A stretch of 64,000 nt of DNA from a phage: the NCBI GenBank assembly GCA_012646185.1, contig GCA_012646185.1_4706.1. One strand, written 5' to 3'. The position numbers and the translations under genes were made by a program. The notes beneath the pieces are model-generated. The model did no database searches. It saw only the letters and a list, made by a program, of their open reading frames with translations, and was not told where the DNA came from. Shown here one piece after another: positions 2,330 through 48,159 of this stretch (positions are counted from its first letter, which is position 1; every line of letters begins with the position of its first letter).

Positions 2330-3655
2330 TCACTTCAAAAGCTTAGACACCGCCATGCTTCGCGCCATCGCAACGTCATACGCATCCATGATCGCGTCAC
2401 CGATAGCGGTATGACGGATCAACGGAATACCCATATCTGGATACTCTTTGGTGCCTAAGATGGATACCGGTTTGTCTTGATACGCGGCAACCATCGAACG
2501 AATATCCTGAACCTGGTTATAACGGCAGATTGGTTTGAAGCCCGCTTTACGGAACCAATGCTCTAATTGCGGCCAATCTGTTTCACCACGAGCAAGATAA
2601 TAGAAGGTATCTTTACCGTAGTATTCGGTCATTTTGTCACGAATACTGTTGACGAACGCATTTACTTCGGCGATGGCTTCTTTATAACCCATTGCCTTAC
2701 AATGTTGAAAACAATAGTCGCGCGCTTCCTTTGGTGCTTTGGTTTGCCACCATTCTACTGTTGATTCACTGATACGACCACCGTCAGCGATTTGACCATG
2801 AACGTCAGGGAAGATATCTATACGCGGACCGTTAACAATGGATTCTGGATTAGCCAGATCGAAGAACACGATACCGATTTCCAGCAATACTCCATTCTTT
2901 TCCAGACTAAGGTTTTCAACATCTAAACAAAATGCGGGCTTCTCTACCGCTAACGGCTCGAACGAATGGTTGCTGGTATCCGATTCGGTTTTAAGTTCGA
3001 CGACAGCCGGATCGGTATCCGTAGGTTTCAGTTCTACTACAGCATCATCGAGTCCCGATAACGAAAAATAGTCTTCGAAGAAATCGGATATCGTCATACC
3101 ATGCAAATTGATATCGCAATCTTCCAACCATTGCTTCAACTGGTGCTCACCGGCATGAATCGCTAAACGGCACGGTCCGGAACGATCATCTAGCGCTGCA
3201 TCGATCCAGAAGAAAGCGCGTATAAGTAAGTAAGGATTATACTCCGCGATGATTTCTTGGCTAGCCGAGAAATCGTACACCATTAGTTGTATTATTCCCT
3301 TACGCGTGTTATACGGATCAACTTTCAATCGACGCACTATTTCTTCTACGAATTCCAACGCGCGCGTGTACGAGGTGGACCCACCTTGTTCATACGAACA
3401 TATACCCGTCAAAAGTTCCTTATAGGACGCATATGGAACCATAGGCGATAATTTGTACGACAGTTCAGTATTGTAATTATCGCATAATTTCTTCGGGGCG
3501 ATAGCATCCTGTATCGCTGTAATAAACGCCGGTCCATCAATATCAAACAACCATCCTTGACGCCGGTATGCAGTGTACCGTAATAACGCACCGATAACTG
3601 CCTGGGGCGGTGTATATTCTTTCCCGTTAATTTCAAACAGTAGTTTGCTCATCAT
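2330..3655 (-). CDS. protein with C-terminal DEDDh-type 3'-5' exonuclease domain
   Basis: 441-aa ORF; Exo I-like FCLDVENLS, Exo III-like RHTAIGDAIMDAYD (H-x-A-x-x-D-A); internal repeat AVVELK x2. Confidence 0.55.
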   Translation of the reverse strand: MMSKLLFEINGKEYTPPQAVIGALLRYTAYRRQGWLFDIDGPAFITAIQDAIAPKKLCDNYNTELSYKLSPMVPYASYKELLTGICSYEQGGSTSYTRALEFVEEIVRRLKVDPYNTRKGIIQLMVYDFSASQEIIAEYNPYLLIRAFFWIDAALDDRSGPCRLAIHAGEHQLKQWLEDCDINLHGMTISDFFEDYFSLSGLDDAVVELKPTDTDPAVVELKTESDTSNHSFEPLAVEKPAFCLDVENLSLEKNGVLLEIGIVFFDLANPESIVNGPRIDIFPDVHGQIADGGRISESTVEWWQTKAPKEARDYCFQHCKAMGYKEAIAEVNAFVNSIRDKMTEYYGKDTFYYLARGETDWPQLEHWFRKAGFKPICRYNQVQDIRSMVAAYQDKPVSILGTKEYPDMGIPLIRHTAIGDAIMDAYDVAMARSMAVSKLLK

Positions 3656-3667
3656 AACACCTTTTCA

Positions 3668-10184: not shown

Positions 10185-10208
10185 CACGTAAGTAATATAG
10201 CCGTGAAA
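10185..10208 (-). promoter_or_regulatory. early-promoter-like motif (minus-strand TTTCACGGCTATATTACTTACGTG)
   Basis: Contains TATATTAC; about 45 nt upstream of gene 9457-10143; one of four near-identical copies. Confidence 0.5.
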
Positions 10209-28186: not shown

Positions 28187-28213
28187 CCACAAAGGTAATA
28201 TAAGCGTGAATAA
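28187..28213 (-). promoter_or_regulatory. early-promoter-like motif (minus-strand ...TTATTCACGCTTATATTACCTTTGTGG)
   Basis: Contains TATATTAC; upstream of gene 26551-28137. Confidence 0.5.
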
Positions 28214-33463: not shown

Positions 33464-33490
33464 ATCACTTAAGTAATATAGCCGTGAAAA
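33464..33490 (-). promoter_or_regulatory. early-promoter-like motif (minus-strand TTTTTCACGGCTATATTACTTAAGTG)
   Basis: Contains TATATTAC; near-identical to the copy at 10185-10208. Confidence 0.5.
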
Positions 33491-35032: not shown

Positions 35033-35257
35033 TTAGCAATGGTTGTTAGTTGCTTCTATTTCATCAAGATACGGTTCTACGTCATCGCCCTCCACGAATT
35101 CGTTGAACCAACAGTCAATGGTAGAAATAACCGGTGACTGGTGTTCACATTTCTTAGATACCTTAAAAGGCACGTTATTATCCATCATACCGAGTTCGGG
35201 TCGAAAACGCCCGAAATGTTTCGCAGTCCAAATGTCTGGGACGATATGGTTGTTCAT
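35033..35257 (-). CDS. RNA polymerase beta-prime N-terminal subunit, exon 3 (proposed)
   Basis: Encodes MNNHIVPD...GMMDNN, matching the beta-prime sequence that follows NADFDGD (MAVHVP / MNLHVP, then LMMSTNN); exact 5' boundary uncertain. Confidence 0.5.
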   Translation of the reverse strand: MNNHIVPDIWTAKHFGRFRPELGMMDNNVPFKVSKKCEHQSPVISTIDCWFNEFVEGDDVEPYLDEIEATNNHC

Positions 35258-35617
35258 CAAAATCTTCAGTATGAATCGCTACTTCATACCCGCAGCATTA
35301 CCTGCAGCTCCTGGTGTTACCAGGATGTTGAGAGTATATCATGCCCATATTCCAAATGGAACGTAGGACTTCCGCGCTGGATCTCGCTTGAGACCACTTA
35401 CTCGTTGAACGTTCTCCTAAACGGAGCTTCGCTGCTGATTGGACATTGTTACGTACGGTAGGCGTCCCATTAAAGGGATTTTCATTGAAGCCGCGTACAT
35501 CCGTTACCTTGTTTCTACCTTATCGGTTCCTCTTACGAGGCGTAACGGCTTTAGCCTATTCCAGCAATTCACGGAATGCATATTCTCCTTTTCAGGAGAT
35601 AAGGCCATGGCTCTGGC
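35258..35617 (-). ncRNA. putative self-splicing intron 1 (ORF-less, group I-like), boundaries approximate
   Basis: About 360-nt hairpin-rich sequence between DFDGD codons and resumption of beta-prime homology; tandem relative of intron 2. Confidence 0.5.
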
Positions 35618-35632
35618 ATCACCGTCAAAGTC
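35618..35632 (-). CDS. RNA polymerase beta-prime micro-exon encoding DFDGD (proposed)
   Basis: Minus-strand codons GAC TTT GAC GGT GAT; flanked by the two intron copies; exon 1 ends ...GYNA. Confidence 0.5.
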
Positions 35633-35982
35633 CACATATCTTCAGTATGAATCGCTACTTCATACCCGCAGCATTACCTGCAGCTCCTGGTGTTACCAGG
35701 ACGGAGAGATCATCTCATCACCCACGAAGGGTGTTCCGCGCTACCCTCAGCGAATTCGAGGGACATGATCGTTGAACCTTCCACCGATAATCGGTGGCTA
35801 GGCTGCTGATTAAACATTGTACGTTGGGGTGGCATCCTGGTTCAGGACTGTCGTTGAAGCCTCCCAACATCCACTCACTTATTTCCGCCTTATCGGCTCC
35901 CATAAGGGCAGAGTGGCTTTAGCCCGTCTCAGCAATTCACGGAATTCAAGCTCTTCCTTTCAGAAGGCAGGGCCTCATCTGA
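35633..35982 (-). ncRNA. putative self-splicing intron 2 (ORF-less, group I-like), boundaries approximate
   Basis: Follows the codon for Ala of ...KGYNA (exon ends in U); RNA ends in G just before GAC of DFDGD; track ORF reads 17 codons into it then stops. Confidence 0.5.
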
Positions 35983-37233
35983 AGCATTGTATCCCTTAAG
36001 GATCATCACGCTTAACCCGATGGTGTTATCCTGCGGATCGCGTTTAACCTTGGTGATTTCAAGACATTGGTTACTGCTTCGGTCAAGTGATGGGTTTCGA
36101 ACAAAGCCGCACACAATCCCATCGAACGGCGTATCAGCAATAAGCTCATCGTGCAGCTCGCTCATCATCGGATGATAATTACGGACATGTTCCGCAACGA
36201 ACGCACGCGCTGCTCTCGGTGAGTAACCACGATGGAATAACTTGGATTGGATATGTTCTTTATTGGTTAAAGTAAATGGTGCGTATGGGAAATGCAGATG
36301 ATAATAACGATGGTTCGCTGTTATCGAACTGATTACGGTACGCGTGGTGAATGGATGTAATGTACCTAATATGTTTTTACGTGTAATACCTTTCTTCTTA
36401 CCGATGAACTCATCGAAAATCGCTGCGTGGTATTGCAGTAGCTTCAATTGCACTTTCGCCATCCAGTTTTCTTTCTTTCTGGCGCTCAAAGGTGTTGTTG
36501 GATGATAGATACTGTTCAACGTACCAATAGCATCGATCGCACCTTCCATTTTGCTATCCGCATAACGACCGGTCGGCGTATTTTCGATAACGAACATCAT
36601 GGCTGCAGGAAAGCTGATATACTGACTGAAGAACTTATCACGATGGATACGGATGAATTCTCGTAGCGTGTCAACTTTCTCCATGTTCTTCGGTCCACGT
36701 AACGTCGGTCCTTTATACAAGATCTCCATGATGCGATCGAAGTTCTGTATAAAGCTATTTACGCCACGCCGTATCCCGAATACATCGAATTGCTGCTCCA
36801 GATAGTTCTTGAGTTCGATGGGTCGTTTTACATTTGGACGGTAACTGGCATCAATGAGCCACGTCATCGTTTCAAAGCTTTTGATATTCAACTCGCTTGC
36901 CAGCACGAGATGGACCAACGGGTTAATGAACGCATCGATTCCTTCAGGAACGCGCGCCCAAACCGTCGAACGAATCTCTTGTTCTGCTGGGTAGGTTACA
37001 ACCGTTTTACAGTTTGGACACACCGTGCCGAGTAGCTCACCACGATTGTAGAAACCACAACCACATTGTGGTGTGATATCCAACGTATCGCTGGAGTAAA
37101 CACGGGTGATAAAACTGTTTAATTTCTTCTTCTCTTCGACGACTTTTGTATCGTAATCATTCAACAAAATCGGCGTGAAAGGAAGTTCTGCGAGCTGTCT
37201 ATCGAAACTCACGATATCGAGCATGATGGCCAT
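35983..37233 (-). CDS. RNA polymerase beta-prime N-terminal subunit, exon 1
   Basis: Zn-finger CGCGFYNRGELLGTVCPNCKTVV (compare CxCGKY...C..CGVEV); NPSLDRSS (compare NRQPSLHK / NRAPTLHR); IGLSVMILKGYNA (compare LNLSVTSPYNA) immediately before the missing DFDGD. Confidence 0.65.
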
Positions 37234-37275
37234 GGGGTATCTCCTACAAATGAAAAAGAACGTTAGGACGTATAA

Positions 37276-37299
37276 GGGAGGGAGGTTGCCCTCCCTCCC
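37276..37299 (-). terminator. GC-rich stem-loop gggagggagg-ttgc-cctccctccc between chimallin candidate and beta-prime gene
   Basis: Perfect 10-bp inverted repeat. Confidence 0.45.
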
Positions 37300-37325
37300 G
37301 TCAGATTACATCGAACGTTCTTCCA

Positions 37326-39221
37326 TTAGAACAGGTTGAATGCCCCACCCATGTTGTTAACGCCAACATTCGGACGATCGCTACGTGCGTAGATGTTACC
37401 GGAGATGTTACCCAGACCACGAGCACGTGCTGCCATGTTACCACGAACAGCGGTACCTGCCAGATGCTGGATGTTCTCAGGACGGATGGTGAAGCCAGCA
37501 TCAGCCGCAGCTTCGATCAGCGCCTGCAGTGCTAACGGATCGAAGTCGTAACGCATTGCCCAGCCGGTTTGTTCCCAGCTACCAGACAGAACACGATCGA
37601 TGATTTCGTGACGAGCGACAACACGCTGAGACATCGTCATATCGGTACGGTCGAAGCTGTCTTCCCAAGCTTCTACGGTATCCGGGTTAGTGATGTTCAT
37701 CATGTACAGATCGTCCATATCACGAATATCGTGACGGTGACCATCCTGGTGGTTGTAGTAACCCAGCGGGATACGGTTACCGGTAGCGTAGACCAGCGGT
37801 TGGCCGTATTGATATTTCTTGCTGAAGCAACCCAGGGTAGTATCATCGAAGGCACGGTAAAGTGCTTTGTAGCCTTCAGAGACTTCCTGAACTTTACCTT
37901 CAACATTACCCGTATAGATCTTCTCAGCCGCCGGGATCATACGCAGCAGCCAGCTGTATTCGCCTTCTTCCGGTACGTCGATAGAAATCAGCAGAGACGG
38001 ATACAGAACCTGTTGCAGGAACTTGTAAATCTGCTCGTTGGTTTGCGTAGACAGATCCAGCGGTGCAGTCACTTCAGGATCCAGCACCATCGCCAGAGCA
38101 CCTGGGTTATGCGGACCAATACCACGAGCCGCGTTGCTGATTAAAGACTGTGCCCATGCCATGCCGCTGTTCAGCGTAGCGATGGTACCAATCAGACCCA
38201 GCACGAAGCTGTTCGGTGTGAACGCATCCAGCTCCAGCGGGTAAGCGCTGGTCATCACGTAACGCGGCTGGTATTGTACAGTCGGCGGTACCGGATAGCC
38301 GTTAACCAGAACAGGGCCTTGGTTGAAGGTCGGGTTCTGCGGGCTGTAGGTCAGGTCGATGTAACCGGTGGTGGCGACCAGACGCTGTTGACTATCGTAA
38401 TCGCTCATCGCTTGACGGATGCGGTTAGAGATAGTTACAGTGATGTCAGAACGCACAGGGTTACCAACAATATCACTGTCCTGCATACCGCTGGTGTTGT
38501 ACTGAACGCTGCTGATTGGCTGATCGCTTGCCATCATGCCCAGGTTGAACTGCGGCAGACCCAGTTTATCACCGAGACGGATTTCGATTGCGGTCTGGAT
38601 TGCGTTATCTGCAGCAGACAGCAGGGTGGTTGCCAGATGCGCAGATTCAGCGGTGATTTCATTGGTCACCACAGCCAGACCAGCGATACGAACAGTACCG
38701 TTAGACTTACCGCCAATAGCTGAATACATTGCCGCCATGACTTCGTTGATGAACGTACCGTTCAGGTTATCAACCCAGGTACGCGGTACCAGAATGTTAC
38801 CATGCGGACCTTGTTCTTCACGACGCGGCAGCGGAGCCAGACCAGCAACCAGCGGCAGGACGTAACCGAAGAAGTGGTTATGATCACCAACTTTTGCACC
38901 GCTCATAACAACCAGGGTCGGATACGGTACGCTGTACTGGTTCGGGTCAACCGCAACAAAGATGAAGTCGTCTTTGAACTGGGTATCTTCCAGATATTTC
39001 TCCATCAGACGACGGAGATTCAGTACCTGCTCGGAGCCGGTATTACGGCTGATACGACGGCTCAGTGTACGGTTGATCGTACGCATCGTATGAGTTACTT
39101 TAGGACGGTCGGCAAAATCTGCAGCGGTTTCCAGCGCCTCATCAGCACGTTGTGCGGTGCGGGTTTCAGCTGCACGAATTTCTACATTATCGTTACCGTT
39201 ATTACGTACGTCTAAGCCCAT
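37326..39221 (-). CDS. chmA: candidate phage-nucleus shell protein (chimallin); alternative is a major virion structural protein
   Basis: 631-aa ORF directly upstream of the beta-prime N-terminal gene (same order as phiKZ gp54-gp55); early-promoter motif 70 nt upstream; extended charged N-terminal tail. Confidence 0.45.
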   Translation of the reverse strand: MGLDVRNNGNDNVEIRAAETRTAQRADEALETAADFADRPKVTHTMRTINRTLSRRISRNTGSEQVLNLRRLMEKYLEDTQFKDDFIFVAVDPNQYSVPYPTLVVMSGAKVGDHNHFFGYVLPLVAGLAPLPRREEQGPHGNILVPRTWVDNLNGTFINEVMAAMYSAIGGKSNGTVRIAGLAVVTNEITAESAHLATTLLSAADNAIQTAIEIRLGDKLGLPQFNLGMMASDQPISSVQYNTSGMQDSDIVGNPVRSDITVTISNRIRQAMSDYDSQQRLVATTGYIDLTYSPQNPTFNQGPVLVNGYPVPPTVQYQPRYVMTSAYPLELDAFTPNSFVLGLIGTIATLNSGMAWAQSLISNAARGIGPHNPGALAMVLDPEVTAPLDLSTQTNEQIYKFLQQVLYPSLLISIDVPEEGEYSWLLRMIPAAEKIYTGNVEGKVQEVSEGYKALYRAFDDTTLGCFSKKYQYGQPLVYATGNRIPLGYYNHQDGHRHDIRDMDDLYMMNITNPDTVEAWEDSFDRTDMTMSQRVVARHEIIDRVLSGSWEQTGWAMRYDFDPLALQALIEAAADAGFTIRPENIQHLAGTAVRGNMAARARGLGNISGNIYARSDRPNVGVNNMGGAFNLF

Positions 39222-39283
39222 TTGGGATTCCTCTTTTCTTAAACTTTATTAAATGACGTCATTGAATCAGCTTCTACTCGCTC

Positions 39284-39311
39284 ATTCACCTAGGTAATAT
39301 AACCCTGAAAT
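39284..39311 (-). promoter_or_regulatory. early-promoter-like motif (minus-strand ATTTCAGGGTTATATTACCTAGGTG)
   Basis: Contains TATATTAC; upstream of 37326-39221; palindrome AATGACGTCATT at 39252-39263 in the leader. Confidence 0.5.
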
Positions 39312-39475: not shown

Positions 39476-40570
39476 ATGTTTCGTGTTTTAAATAACCTCC
39501 CGCGAACATCATCGGGTGTGCAACCCGTCCCTCAGAAAGACTATCTAATACGCGAAGTTCAAAGAAACCTACAGACAATCCAGAACCACTATCAAGGTTT
39601 TACCTTCGCGGTTCAGAGCGATCACATCCTTGCGTTGCTGCTCGCACAGCTCCCTATGAGATACGACATCTCAGTACAAACTTACTACGACATGATTCTC
39701 GATCTTACCCCAGAATTGGGTAATCGTGTCAAGTTGACAACATCAAGATACGCGGGTAAGTTATTCGACGGTGCTTTCTATCCGGGATTGCACGAAGCTA
39801 TTATCGCAACCGGTGAAAGTCGTCTTATTTCACGTGACGTTCTTGACAACTGGCGTAATTGGTCACCAGTTAGAATCGTGACGCACCCATACGCAAATCT
39901 TCGTTACATTCCTCTTCACCGAAAGCAGGTTGAAGATGGGCGAGGTTTTGCAGTCATTATGGTTGACGTACCTTTATTAGCGCTACAGTATCGAATGTGG
40001 TCTTTGATCATGGGTCATAACGTCGACGGTAAATGGGTGGTTAAAGAACCGGTTACAAGCTTCCTTGCGAGTTTTCCGTTGGTTAACGCATTATACTCAC
40101 ACAACGATGTTGTTATACGTAATCGTTGTTTGTGGGTATCTCCGGCTAAGAATCCACTCAAATCACCCATTTACGTTAACGACCTTGATAACGTATTCAG
40201 CCAAGTCGTTCTGTCCGTACAGCATCATTTATTACGAAGAAGACGAAGCTACACCGATATGCTTAAACAGATACCGAGTTTATACGGAGATCAGTACCAA
40301 GCAACCCGAATGGGTTACACCGTCGATCTTCGACAAACACGATGGGCAAGGGATCTGGGTTGTCTGTCATTATGGCAACAACTCGTCACATTGCAAAACG
40401 TATCTGAAAGCGTCGGGTTCAGCAGTCAAATCGATAACGACCTGTACCGTGCTGCCGACCGGAGTCTAAAAGAAGGTAACTGGGAATCCTCTCCGTTACC
40501 TGGCGATTTAAGACGTGAAGTTATCGCACAGGTTGCCGACCTCTTAAAAATTCTTCCCGCTGGTGCATAA
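39476..40570 (+). CDS. hypothetical protein
   Basis: 364-aa plus-strand ORF. Confidence 0.5.
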   Translation: MFRVLNNLPRTSSGVQPVPQKDYLIREVQRNLQTIQNHYQGFTFAVQSDHILALLLAQLPMRYDISVQTYYDMILDLTPELGNRVKLTTSRYAGKLFDGAFYPGLHEAIIATGESRLISRDVLDNWRNWSPVRIVTHPYANLRYIPLHRKQVEDGRGFAVIMVDVPLLALQYRMWSLIMGHNVDGKWVVKEPVTSFLASFPLVNALYSHNDVVIRNRCLWVSPAKNPLKSPIYVNDLDNVFSQVVLSVQHHLLRRRRSYTDMLKQIPSLYGDQYQATRMGYTVDLRQTRWARDLGCLSLWQQLVTLQNVSESVGFSSQIDNDLYRAADRSLKEGNWESSPLPGDLRREVIAQVADLLKILPAGA

Positions 40571-40636: not shown

Positions 40637-42790
40637 TTACTCTGCGGTTTCTTGCTTCGGTAAATAACTTGCTGCAATGTCTTGGGCTAACAATGTATTG
40701 TTTTTATTCGAGATGAAAATACCGTAACTTTCCATTAACGCGTAATACGAACGCACGAGCGTAGAGATCAATCGACGAATATCCATACCTTGAATAAAGA
40801 TATCGGGAAGCCCGGAGGCTTCGATCACCGGTAATGGTATCGTTAAGTTGCTTATCGTTTTCTTATCGTTACGTACAATCCAATCACGGAAACGTTGTTG
40901 TAACCCTTTATCCTCCCAGGAATCAATCCAATCGTTAAGAAGCGTTTTGTTCTTCGTCGCCAACGGCACACGAACCCCAACATAGGGTGGTTCCTGGCAA
41001 TGGCCGTACGATTGAGCAAACACCTCTTCCCACATATCGTAAGACTGTTTCGTTACTGCAACATGCGGTTTCACTTTAACACGTGTTAAGAAATCGGGAT
41101 CACCTCGTTTCATGGACTCAACGATTTCGTTTTCTAACGAGATAATATCATCAAGAACCAATCGAATGCTGATCTTCTCATTACGTAACAGCTTATCCAT
41201 GATACCACACATCATGCGTTCAACACGTTTGACGATCATTTTTGGTGCTGACGCATCACGCATAACAGGACCTTTCAATTCCAGCTTCGGTGGATTGATA
41301 GGAACCCCTTCACGCATGGTCATGTAACCGTAATAGTTTTTACCCATCGAGGTTAACGACAGAATCAAGAACATATATTCGTTCTTCATTTCCATTACGT
41401 ACATATGCTCTTTCGCTACACCGATATTACCAGAACACATCGCCATCAGATGAACCGTAATCTGCGTAACCAGATAGATAAGCGTATTTGCTAAGCGCGT
41501 CGAAACTGGATTGATCTCCATATTTCCAAATCGCCACTGAACCCACTCCTGGCAGGTAAACACCGTCGAGTCGGTATCAGACAACACACCCACTTCACGG
41601 ATTGCTGATGGGAAAGCATAAACGCCAGCCGGTTGGTTCTCGGTACGCCAGAACGCCATAATCAAATCAGCATAGCTTTGAATACGCTGTAGCATTAATT
41701 TTGTCGTTGCTGCAGTAAGACGATAACCAAGCTCATTTCCTTTTTCTAGCGCTACGTAAATCGCTTCCCCGTTCAAGAACTCCGTGCATTGTGCTGTAAT
41801 CCAAGCGACCGTGTTGTTATCCATGGAAGCAATAATGGCTTTAGCCTCTTCCATCGTTTCAACCGGTTCGGATGCCAGTTCACATAACGAGTCAAGAAAA
41901 TCTCGAACAAATTCAGGATTAAGCTCACGTAACGAGTACAGGTTATTGCTGTACATGTAGCAGGCACGTTCCAGTGGGGTTAAACCAGTAATTAACTCCC
42001 GGATAATCAGTTCTTTCTCTGGGTCGAAAGTATATCGATGCAAGCATTTCGATACGTTAGCCCAAACCTCTTCCGGTGTAGGGTAATGTAATTTGTATTT
42101 TACCATTACCTGTTCAATGGCTTTACGATCGCTGTTACGGACAATACTTACGATGTTTTCGATTGCGATATCACAATCGTAATAATGGAAATTGCCCGCA
42201 AGGAAGCGTTCGTTGTTCGCATTGGCTGAACCTGAAGCACAGCGACATGTTGTCGTTAAACTTGGATGCGCGATCGGATTATAAAAAGGGTTAAACTTGG
42301 ACGCCTGGGTTCCTGACAAACTGTTGTTATCTAACTTGGTGTTGGTTTGTCGTTTATCGTGTAACTCAGCTTCATCTTTACGTCCGTGTGCTTGTGCTAT
42401 CGACATTTGTTTCTTTTGTTTCTTACGCAACTTACCGTTTTCAACCGCGAAGTCGCTTAGCACACTGGAGCGTGTCTCACGTGGGTAACAGTTAGCCCAC
42501 ACCGGCGTGATAATTAAATTATTTTCTTTAATATCGTTGAAGTATTGGCTGAACTTGATGACTTCTTTTTCTCGATTTCCTTCGGTACGCTGTGTTAATA
42601 CAAGACAGTCGGGATCAACCATCCCGTATTTTCCACCAGGACGAACCGTTTCAAGAACAAACTGCAACGCTTCCTGCTGTGATATCCCACGCATGCGCAT
42701 TAAGAACAGGGTATAATCCTGTACCGCTTCTTTGGTCATATCCAACGTACGACCATATCCGTTTTCATCGTAAAAGAACGGATTTTCCAT
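40637..42790 (-). CDS. hypothetical large protein
   Basis: 717-aa ORF; contains SDTDS but no ordered polymerase motif set. Confidence 0.5.
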   Translation of the reverse strand: MENPFFYDENGYGRTLDMTKEAVQDYTLFLMRMRGISQQEALQFVLETVRPGGKYGMVDPDCLVLTQRTEGNREKEVIKFSQYFNDIKENNLIITPVWANCYPRETRSSVLSDFAVENGKLRKKQKKQMSIAQAHGRKDEAELHDKRQTNTKLDNNSLSGTQASKFNPFYNPIAHPSLTTTCRCASGSANANNERFLAGNFHYYDCDIAIENIVSIVRNSDRKAIEQVMVKYKLHYPTPEEVWANVSKCLHRYTFDPEKELIIRELITGLTPLERACYMYSNNLYSLRELNPEFVRDFLDSLCELASEPVETMEEAKAIIASMDNNTVAWITAQCTEFLNGEAIYVALEKGNELGYRLTAATTKLMLQRIQSYADLIMAFWRTENQPAGVYAFPSAIREVGVLSDTDSTVFTCQEWVQWRFGNMEINPVSTRLANTLIYLVTQITVHLMAMCSGNIGVAKEHMYVMEMKNEYMFLILSLTSMGKNYYGYMTMREGVPINPPKLELKGPVMRDASAPKMIVKRVERMMCGIMDKLLRNEKISIRLVLDDIISLENEIVESMKRGDPDFLTRVKVKPHVAVTKQSYDMWEEVFAQSYGHCQEPPYVGVRVPLATKNKTLLNDWIDSWEDKGLQQRFRDWIVRNDKKTISNLTIPLPVIEASGLPDIFIQGMDIRRLISTLVRSYYALMESYGIFISNKNNTLLAQDIAASYLPKQETAE

Positions 42791-47178: not shown

Positions 47179-48159
47179 TTAGAAAAGCAAGAAACCGCTA
47201 TTCTTCGCTTCCGCTACAGTTTCGTCACCAACTTTCGGTGCCTGTTGACGTGCGTTACGATGTTCGATGTAACGTTTCGCTTCGTCAGCGATTTGTTTGA
47301 TAATACCCCCTAAACGATCGGTACTTAAAACAAACGACGTCGCTTCACGAATCGGGCTGCTTTCAGGCACAAAACCATCACAGCTGTAAATAGCGCTAAC
47401 ACCCATGACTTTTGTCGCGTCTTTCGGATAAAGCGTACAGAAAGCAATCGGGCTATCGTTCTCTTTCGTCCAATCGTATCCCATGAACGTATTCAGTTCG
47501 GTGATCGTTGGTTCCAAACCGGTAACACGTGGATGGTTTAAGAAGTTTTCCAGGTCGGCGCTGTCAAGACGACGGTTCTCGCCAGAAAACAGAACACAAA
47601 GCTGGCTAATAACAACCTGCACGTCCAGGTTGACATCCTGCTCCGATTTCCCATTTTCGCCATTCATGTGATAGCTAACAATCACTGGACGTTTCAACCC
47701 TTCTGCAGCCGCCATCAGTCCCTTGAAGGTGCGATCGGCGTTGATCGTCTGGCGCTCATCATCGAACGAGGCAACGATACAACACACCACACGTTCACCG
47801 CGTTCCAGCAGGTTAGCAACCAACGCAGGACCGGCAACAGAACCTGAACCACCGCTCAAACTAAAGACCACGATATTAAATTTACCGGGCGTACGCTTAT
47901 TCAGAATACCCGGGATTTGTGAACAGATCAGTTCAGCGTTCTCATCACGCTTCTTACCAGAACCGTCTAACTCACGACCGGCTGCATCTTTAAAGATGTA
48001 AATATGATCGTCACCCAGTGTGCTATCGCGTAGGTTAGCGCGGCTGGTATCGACATACGTCATGCTGTGTAATCCTTTCGCGACTTCGCCTTCAAATGCT
48101 GAGCCGATTTCGCCACCACAACCACCGACAGCCCAAATATGTACTTGGTTCTCTTGCAT
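47179..48159 (-). CDS. phuZ: tubulin/FtsZ-like GTPase PhuZ
   Basis: 326-aa ORF; N-terminal AVGGCGGEIG (T1 loop) and SLSGGSGSVAGP (tubulin signature GGGTGSG-like). Confidence 0.8.
   Translation of the reverse strand: MQENQVHIWAVGGCGGEIGSAFEGEVAKGLHSMTYVDTSRANLRDSTLGDDHIYIFKDAAGRELDGSGKKRDENAELICSQIPGILNKRTPGKFNIVVFSLSGGSGSVAGPALVANLLERGERVVCCIVASFDDERQTINADRTFKGLMAAAEGLKRPVIVSYHMNGENGKSEQDVNLDVQVVISQLCVLFSGENRRLDSADLENFLNHPRVTGLEPTITELNTFMGYDWTKENDSPIAFCTLYPKDATKVMGVSAIYSCDGFVPESSPIREATSFVLSTDRLGGIIKQIADEAKRYIEHRNARQQAPKVGDETVAEAKNSGFLLF

Follow-up and report, generated by a model that had tools for sequence, protein, structure and literature searches.

Chimallin (ChmA) is the major shell protein of the phage nucleus, and the founding members of its family come from Pseudomonas phages, namely phiKZ gp54, 201phi2-1 gp105 and PhiPA3 gp53 (PhuN). 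The chimallin of Escherichia phage vB_EcoM_Goslar, gp189 (YP_009820873.1), has a cryo-EM structure at 2.3-4.2 Å and is the protein in PDB entries 7SQT, 7SQU and 7SQV (PMC9365700); RefSeq labels the same record (HOV27_gp246) 'nuclear shell protein'. The chimallin core consists of two domains, a novel alpha/beta N-terminal domain and a GNAT-like C-terminal domain without catalytic residues, and an N-terminal segment docks on the neighboring protomer to give C4 tetramers (PMC9365700). CTS1 and CTS2 reach neighboring tetramers through flexible linkers, producing a pliable square lattice with pores of ~1.4 nm, and the Goslar protein forms an 11.5-nm grid in situ and cubes of ~22 nm in vitro (PMC9365700). 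The C-terminal domain resembles the AtaT fold and the binding of CTS1 resembles that of an antitoxin; the Goslar and 201phi2-1 chimallins are 19.3% identical, and CTS2 is shorter in the Goslar-type protein (PMC9365700). When ChmA is knocked down in Goslar, plaquing drops at least 10,000-fold and infection does not proceed beyond the vesicle stage (PMC10541120); the gene is described as early in this phage, expressed from the EPI vesicle (PMC12908238). In the phiKZ genome (NC_004629), gp54 carries the annotation 'nuclear shell protein' and the next gene, gp55, that of 'RNA polymerase beta subunit'; upstream of gp54 lie gp52, an opposite-strand head protein, and gp50, a DNA polymerase.

We analyzed a 64,000-nucleotide stretch of phage DNA (the window) that contains a locus of this kind. 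In a first-pass annotation, a 631-aa ORF without enzymatic motifs had been proposed, by synteny only, to encode a chimallin, and the phiKZ gp54-gp55 arrangement on which the proposal leaned is correct as given in the phiKZ record. The features of the locus are listed here in the direction of chmA transcription.

47179..48159, minus strand: PhuZ phage tubulin (PHROG 4733 'tubulin PhuZ', E 1.1e-66; Goslar annotation 'tubulin PhuZ')

40637..42790, minus strand: divergent family B DNA polymerase, a neighbor typical of Chimalliviridae (Pfam PF20286, E 1.4e-204)

39476..40570, plus strand: divergently transcribed 364-aa gene in the position of phiKZ gp52 (PHROG 3938, a weak 'virion structural protein' match)

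39287..39310, minus strand: early-promoter-like element TTTCAGGGTTATATTACCTAGGTG of the phiKZ type, a presumed virion-RNAP promoter (enriched motif, published consensus)

39229..39233, minus strand: Shine-Dalgarno-like GAGGA, 7 nt before the chmA ATG, read from the sequence

37326..39221, minus strand: chmA, almost certainly encoding chimallin (ChmA), the major phage-nucleus shell protein (631 aa, ATG start; Pfam, PHROG and PDB matches)

37248..37322, minus strand: compound GC-rich hairpin followed by a U-rich tract, terminator- or attenuator-like by its fold energy, between chmA and the beta-prime gene

The identity of the chmA product was evaluated with three independent libraries, Pfam, PHROGs and PDB sequences, and all three bear out the proposal. 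Pfam family PF25677 (Chimallin_Phikzvirus) matches at 94.9 bits, with a gathering cut-off of 27 (E 4.6e-27), and aligns residues 19-596 to profile positions 10-592 of 627. This was the only Pfam family matched, in agreement with the description of an ORF free of enzymatic motifs. PHROG 4795, 'nuclear shell protein', covers residues 20-629 (E 5.6e-54) and was likewise the only family found in its library. The PDB sequence search returned 7SQT_A, 'Chimallin', at 1408 bits in a gapless alignment over residues 1-631, with weaker but significant matches to phiPA3 PhuN (8FNE, 1e-21) and 201phi2-1 chimallin (7SQQ, 5e-11; also 8IGG); all PDB matches above noise were chimallins. The charged N-terminal tail that had been described is present, with 32% charged residues at positions 1-62 versus 18% in the core, and the GC content of the ORF is ~0.48, the same as that of the remaining window. 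By every feature that could be tested from its sequence, the product is a member of the chimallin family, and nothing was found that contradicts the identification. We are close to certain that the ORF encodes the major phage-nucleus shell protein ChmA of a Chimalliviridae phage closely related to Escherichia phage Goslar.

The alternative named in the first-pass annotation was a major capsid protein or another abundant virion structural protein. The circumstances that suggest it are the large size of the ORF, its lack of enzymatic motifs and a neighboring gene matched weakly in PHROGs to a 'virion structural protein'. Homology of the sort this alternative would call for is lacking: the comparison with chimallin and capsid families that had been proposed matched chimallin, neither Pfam nor PHROGs (E<=0.01) gave a capsid or other virion family, and the PDB matches included none. 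In the collinear Goslar map, the virion genes, including terminase, sheath and structural proteins, occupy other positions. A capsid assignment is already refuted by the alignment to the chimallin cryo-EM chains over the full length of the protein, and we regard it as extremely improbable.

Through the gapless alignment to 7SQT_A over residues 1-631, the full chimallin architecture is present in the chmA product, comprising the N-tail and NTS, the N-terminal alpha/beta domain, the GNAT-like C-terminal domain, CTS1 and CTS2. The one point that would favor reading the product as an active GNAT-type acetyltransferase toxin instead of a shell protein is the resemblance to AtaT reported for the C-terminal domain of chimallin (PMC9365700). 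In contrast to such a toxin, the chmA product matched no acetyltransferase family in Pfam, leaving AtaT-like tRNA-acetylating toxins without a sequence-level match, and the catalytic residues are absent from chimallin (PMC9365700). The chance that the product is a toxin of this type is vanishingly small.

The chmA product is equal in length to Goslar chimallin and identical to it at 618 of 631 residues (98%), with no gaps. At the DNA level, the locus is 97.4% identical to Goslar, the sole phage in the collection matching at that level, and the window is collinear with Goslar positions 132,659-197,675 (63 kb) at ~96% DNA identity, except for two replaced segments. The two loci have the same neighbors on both sides of the shell gene, the same promoter motif and the same hairpin; they differ in thirteen chimallin substitutions and in the set of introns in the downstream beta-prime gene. 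The substitutions relative to Goslar are G38D, Q39R, R81Q, A167S, A177V, T338S, K439N, E443K, R445Q, I447V, V461T, L474Q and H488Y. Among the 58 codons that differ, 45 are synonymous and 13 non-synonymous, which indicates purifying selection on chmA. Residues 40-80 and 489-631 are identical to those of Goslar chimallin. An alignment to 201phi2-1 (NTS 48-61, CTS1 590-611, CTS2 622-631), with domain limits taken from PMC9365700, places all three predicted segments inside these identical stretches. None of the substitutions falls in these parts of the tails, which join protomers into tetramers and tetramers into the lattice.

Residues 439-488 of the C-terminal domain account for seven of the thirteen substitutions, a clustering with p ~0.001 (21 of 20,000 random placements were as tight). 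Across 16 near-identical alleles of the 90% cluster of the chmA product, 39 columns vary, 11 of them within residues 425-474. Speculatively, residues 439-488 may be a fast-evolving surface patch that sets lineage-specific recognition of partners such as import, export or capsid-docking factors, or alternatively may mediate escape from a shell-sensing host factor, contributing to the incompatibility of co-infecting Goslar-like phages; we think this proposal unlikely to be right.

The sequences flanking chmA carry a single mismatch to Goslar in 346 nt, with 253 of 254 nt identical upstream and 92 of 92 downstream, the latter being the intergenic DNA between chmA and beta-prime with its hairpin. 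A special regulatory constraint on these flanks was considered and rejected, as conservation of this degree is reached by 6.8% of 254-nt windows across the two genomes and is not exceptional.

A 236,379-nt contig at NCBI carries the exact chmA protein under the accession EFI3629364.1, with the title 'hypothetical protein [Escherichia coli]'. Its 90% cluster has 249 members, many of them from Salmonella and E. coli isolate assemblies, on contigs of 235-241 kb. The filing of the protein under E. coli isolate assemblies as a 'hypothetical protein', together with the many cluster members from Salmonella and E. coli isolate WGS, could be taken to mean that phage-derived DNA within an E. coli genome assembly carries the ORF as a chimallin copy that is decaying or no longer functional. 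We consider this very improbable: the ORF is uninterrupted over its full length and shows a synonymous to non-synonymous ratio of 45:13, the assembly-critical tails are identical to those of Goslar, the carrying contigs of 235-241 kb have the full size of a Goslar genome, and the 64-kb window is collinear with Goslar with its neighboring genes intact. The 'hypothetical protein' label of EFI3629364.1 is an annotation gap and not evidence against a chimallin. Homologues were found by tblastn in 111 phage records, all of them from jumbo phages whose hosts include Pseudomonas, Erwinia and Ralstonia. Outside Goslar these are 22-30% identical, and several are annotated as nuclear shell protein or ChmA. 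A scan of contigs of GTDB species representatives found no relatives.

The position of the gene is that expected of a chimallin. The order in the window is divergent family B DNA polymerase, opposite-strand 364-aa gene, chmA and nvRNAP beta-prime. The beta-prime ORF (35929..37233, minus strand) starts 92 nt past the chmA stop on the same strand, as had been claimed from the sequence, and it matches PHROG 2987 'RNA polymerase beta subunit' (E 5e-115) and phiKZ gp55 (PDB 7OGP, E 1e-74). PhuZ, which had been placed 8 kb away, lies 7.96 kb from the chmA start. The Chimalliviridae core genes PhuZ, divergent DNA polymerase and nvRNAP beta-prime thus accompany chmA, and more RNAP beta subunits are present in the collinear Goslar map. 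The suggestion of a nucleus-forming phage holds as well, the Goslar-collinear window with its PhuZ gene belonging to a nucleus-forming Chimalliviridae phage of E. coli. The founding Pseudomonas-phage chimallins belong to the same Pfam family as the chmA product, with ~535 residues alignable across both core domains, and their shell gene likewise lies just upstream of nvRNAP beta-prime (gp55) and likewise has the TATATTAC early-promoter core, but they are only ~20-25% identical to the chmA product.

The early-promoter-like motif that had been noted for chmA is supported in its extended form. The core TATATTAC lies at 39301..39294, 73 nt upstream of the chmA ATG. The bare 8-mer TATATTAC is not enriched in the window (4 observed versus 2.56 expected); the 16-mer TTCACGGCTATATTAC, allowing up to 3 mismatches, occurs 4 times in the window versus 0.69 expected, and none of 100 shuffles reached 4. 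The four copies share the consensus tttTTCAcGGyTATATTACyt..GTG, and each lies on the coding strand at a distance of 49-94 nt from the ORF start downstream of it. The chmA element is identical in Goslar. The published early-promoter consensus is TATATTAC for phiKZ and ..TTTRARR_BTATATTACDWHDGTG for 201phi2-1 (PMC7058600 Table 2), and TTTCAGGGTTATATTACCTAGGTG fits both. Such motifs are reviewed as early promoters read by the virion RNAP (PMC7598289). A sigma-70 promoter scan gave nothing relevant. From this resemblance and from the Goslar orthologue, we infer that the injected virion RNAP would transcribe chmA early from the TATATTAC-type element at 39310..39287.

A strong stem-loop had also been claimed at the 3' end of chmA, and folding confirms it. 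The inner stem, GGGAGGGAGG-GCAA-CCUCCCUCCC at 37299..37276, is closed by a GCAA loop and sits within a longer stem at 37322..37256 with an outer 9-bp stem formed by AAGAACGUU and AACGUUCUU, followed by UUUCAUUU. The hairpin has an MFE of -40.9 kcal/mol (z = -5.3), and none of 200 shuffles folds as well. A simple terminator scan gave nothing relevant, having missed the long compound hairpin. Located past the chmA stop, the hairpin may terminate or attenuate transcription ahead of the much less abundant RNAP subunit.

A separate observation concerns the nvRNAP beta-prime gene beside chmA, which is a three-exon gene in which two group I introns without ORFs, 18 nt apart, interrupt the catalytic NADFDGD motif. 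Its parts are as follows.

35983..37233, minus strand: nvRNAP beta-prime (N-terminal part) exon 1, 417 codons ending in ...LKGYNA; the annotatable ORF runs into the intron to 35929

35633..35982, minus strand: group I intron 1, 350 nt, no ORF (Rfam RF00028, covariation, in-frame splice model)

35615..35632, minus strand: mini-exon 2, 18 nt, GACTTTGACGGTGATGCC, encoding DFDGDA with the catalytic Asp triad (gapless alignment to phiKZ gp55 NADFDGDQ)

35258..35614, minus strand: group I intron 2, 357 nt, no ORF (Rfam RF00028, the allele at locus L005, covariation)

35033..35257, minus strand: beta-prime exon 3, MNNHIVPD...NNHC and then a stop, annotated separately in Goslar as hypothetical gp185

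The two RF00028 matches lie at 35992..35686 (23.1 bits, E 0.0045) and 35671..35310 (27.4 bits, E 2.4e-4) and both span model positions 1-253, with scores below the gathering score of 50 and E-values that refer to a 2.5-kb search. Joining 37233..35983, 35632..35615 and 35257..35033 gives an in-frame product of 497 aa. This product matches PHROG 2987 over positions 1-474 of 478 at 445 bits, versus 386 bits for the exon 1 ORF alone, and the 75-aa ORF of exon 3 by itself matches positions 425-475 of the same family. The predicted spliced product also aligns without gaps through NADFDGDAMNNHIVPD to phiKZ gp55/56.1 in PDB 7OGP, where the phiKZ chain is named as a PHIKZ055+PHIKZ056.1 fusion. We therefore rejected the C-terminus of the 434-aa beta-prime ORF (…SDEALPSERKSLNSVNC) as genuine; it is intron read-through, the residues after LKGYNA being unrelated and the splice model restoring the frame. 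The first-pass annotation had called this ORF the beta-prime N-terminal gene, which stands insofar as it is an nvRNAP beta-prime homologue and has to be amended in that the ORF is exon 1 only of an intron-split gene.

The intron alleles were compared at 8 loci. RNAalifold on 8 intron copies gave 86 consensus pairs, 28 of them with compensatory changes on both sides. The window and L009 carry both ORF-less introns. At L005, intron 1 is present and intron 2 is absent (…GACGGTGACGCA/ATGAAC…, the slash here and below marking the splice position), exactly at the predicted junction, and the boundaries of intron 2 are therefore fixed empirically. In Goslar, the first intron is unrelated, is inserted 5 nt further on and carries the HNH gene gp186, and the second intron is present as well; L006 and L011 have this Goslar-type first intron without the HNH ORF. 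Contigs with identical or near-identical chimallin thus differ in the beta-prime introns that they carry. Canonically, group I introns have a U.G wobble at the 5' splice site and a terminal G (omega-G) at the 3' end. With P1 assigned by eye, GCU/UC of intron 1 would pair with GAGGC (U.G), and the intron ends in ...GUG/. For intron 2 in the window and L009, assigned in the same way, GCC/ would pair with UGGC as C-G, not U.G, and the end is ...UUUG/. An intron-split beta-prime is already known in kind, because phiKZ has the HNH endonuclease gene gp56 between its gp55 and 56.1 pieces. In PhiPA3, a comparable intron/HNH element in a virion-RNAP gene acts in inter-phage competition (PMC11620839).

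By orthology with the 98%-identical Goslar protein and with 201phi2-1 gp105, tetramers of the chmA product would form a square lattice that surrounds the replicating phage DNA and keeps host nucleases out. The chimallin finding itself is already known, since the orthologue is characterized structurally and genetically, and chmA adds little biologically to a structure and an essential role that have been demonstrated. It does show that reasoning from synteny only, with a shell gene 5' of nvRNAP beta-prime, a PhuZ nearby and an early-promoter motif, correctly picked a chimallin. The label 'hypothetical protein' still stands on the exact protein and on ~249 cluster relatives from E. coli and Salmonella isolate assemblies, all of which are open to re-annotation. 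The Goslar lineage recurs as contigs of ~237 kb in enterobacterial isolate sequencing, and the intron polymorphism in the active-site codons of its RNAP provides natural variation in which homing of introns and competition among chimalliviruses can be studied.

The nvRNAP beta-prime gene adjoining chmA, the chimallin gene, occupies 35033-37233 on the minus strand. It has three exons, separated by two predicted group I introns:

35982..35633, minus strand, intron 1, group I, without an ORF
35614..35258, minus strand, intron 2, group I, without an ORF

The two introns are spaced 18 nt apart and both lie within the codons of the beta-prime catalytic NADFDGD motif. The third exon is a 75-aa ORF that carries the label hypothetical gp185 in the annotation of Goslar (Escherichia phage vB_EcoM_Goslar), and the protein predicted after splicing gives a gapless alignment with phiKZ gp55/56.1. 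At the 5′ splice site of group I introns the usual pair is a U.G wobble; at that of intron 2 (35612-35617, minus strand) the final exon base is a C (exon end GCC), with a G as its partner in the inferred P1. The identical C precedes intron 2 in the related contig L009, so a sequencing error at this base is unlikely.

The intron site was compared among contigs whose chimallin is 97-100% identical, namely L005 (4472-4890), L006 (4612-5400), L009 (9215-9990), L011 (9986-10353), and the Goslar record L001 (9186-11030). At least four intron configurations occur among them, including intron 1 together with intron 2, intron 1 alone, and an unrelated intron, in some cases carrying an HNH endonuclease ORF and in others lacking one, accompanied by a second intron (intron B). 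The three insertion sites in beta-prime all fall inside ~25 nt. Within chmA itself, the product differs from Goslar chimallin at 13 residues, 7 of them clustered in codons 439-488 of the C-terminal domain (window 37758-37907; p about 0.001). Variability across 16 alleles of the 90% cluster is likewise highest in these 50 residues.

Elsewhere in the window, positions 2330-3655 (minus strand) encode a homologue of Goslar gp147, a 3′-5′ exoribonuclease. The C-terminal 205 aa of the two proteins are ~94% identical; the N-terminal ~236 aa give way to sequence that can scarcely be aligned, and a blastn search with window DNA 2950-3663 returned no match in Goslar. The gene has the appearance of a mosaic domain swap. 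Three more intergenic copies of the extended early-promoter-like element, TTCACGGCTATATTAC…GTG, are present, each lying 49-94 nt before the start of an ORF on the minus strand:

10192-10207, minus strand, upstream of the Goslar gp159 counterpart
28195-28210, minus strand, upstream of the Goslar gp175 counterpart
33473-33488, minus strand, upstream of the Goslar gp182 counterpart

The exact chimallin sequence has a public record, EFI3629364.1, from a 236-kb contig, under the name ‘hypothetical protein [Escherichia coli]’. The 90% chimallin cluster has 249 members, many of them from isolate assemblies of Salmonella enterica and E. coli, on contigs of 235-241 kb. It therefore seems that Goslar-like jumbo phages accompany sequenced enterobacterial isolates; they are still unannotated.
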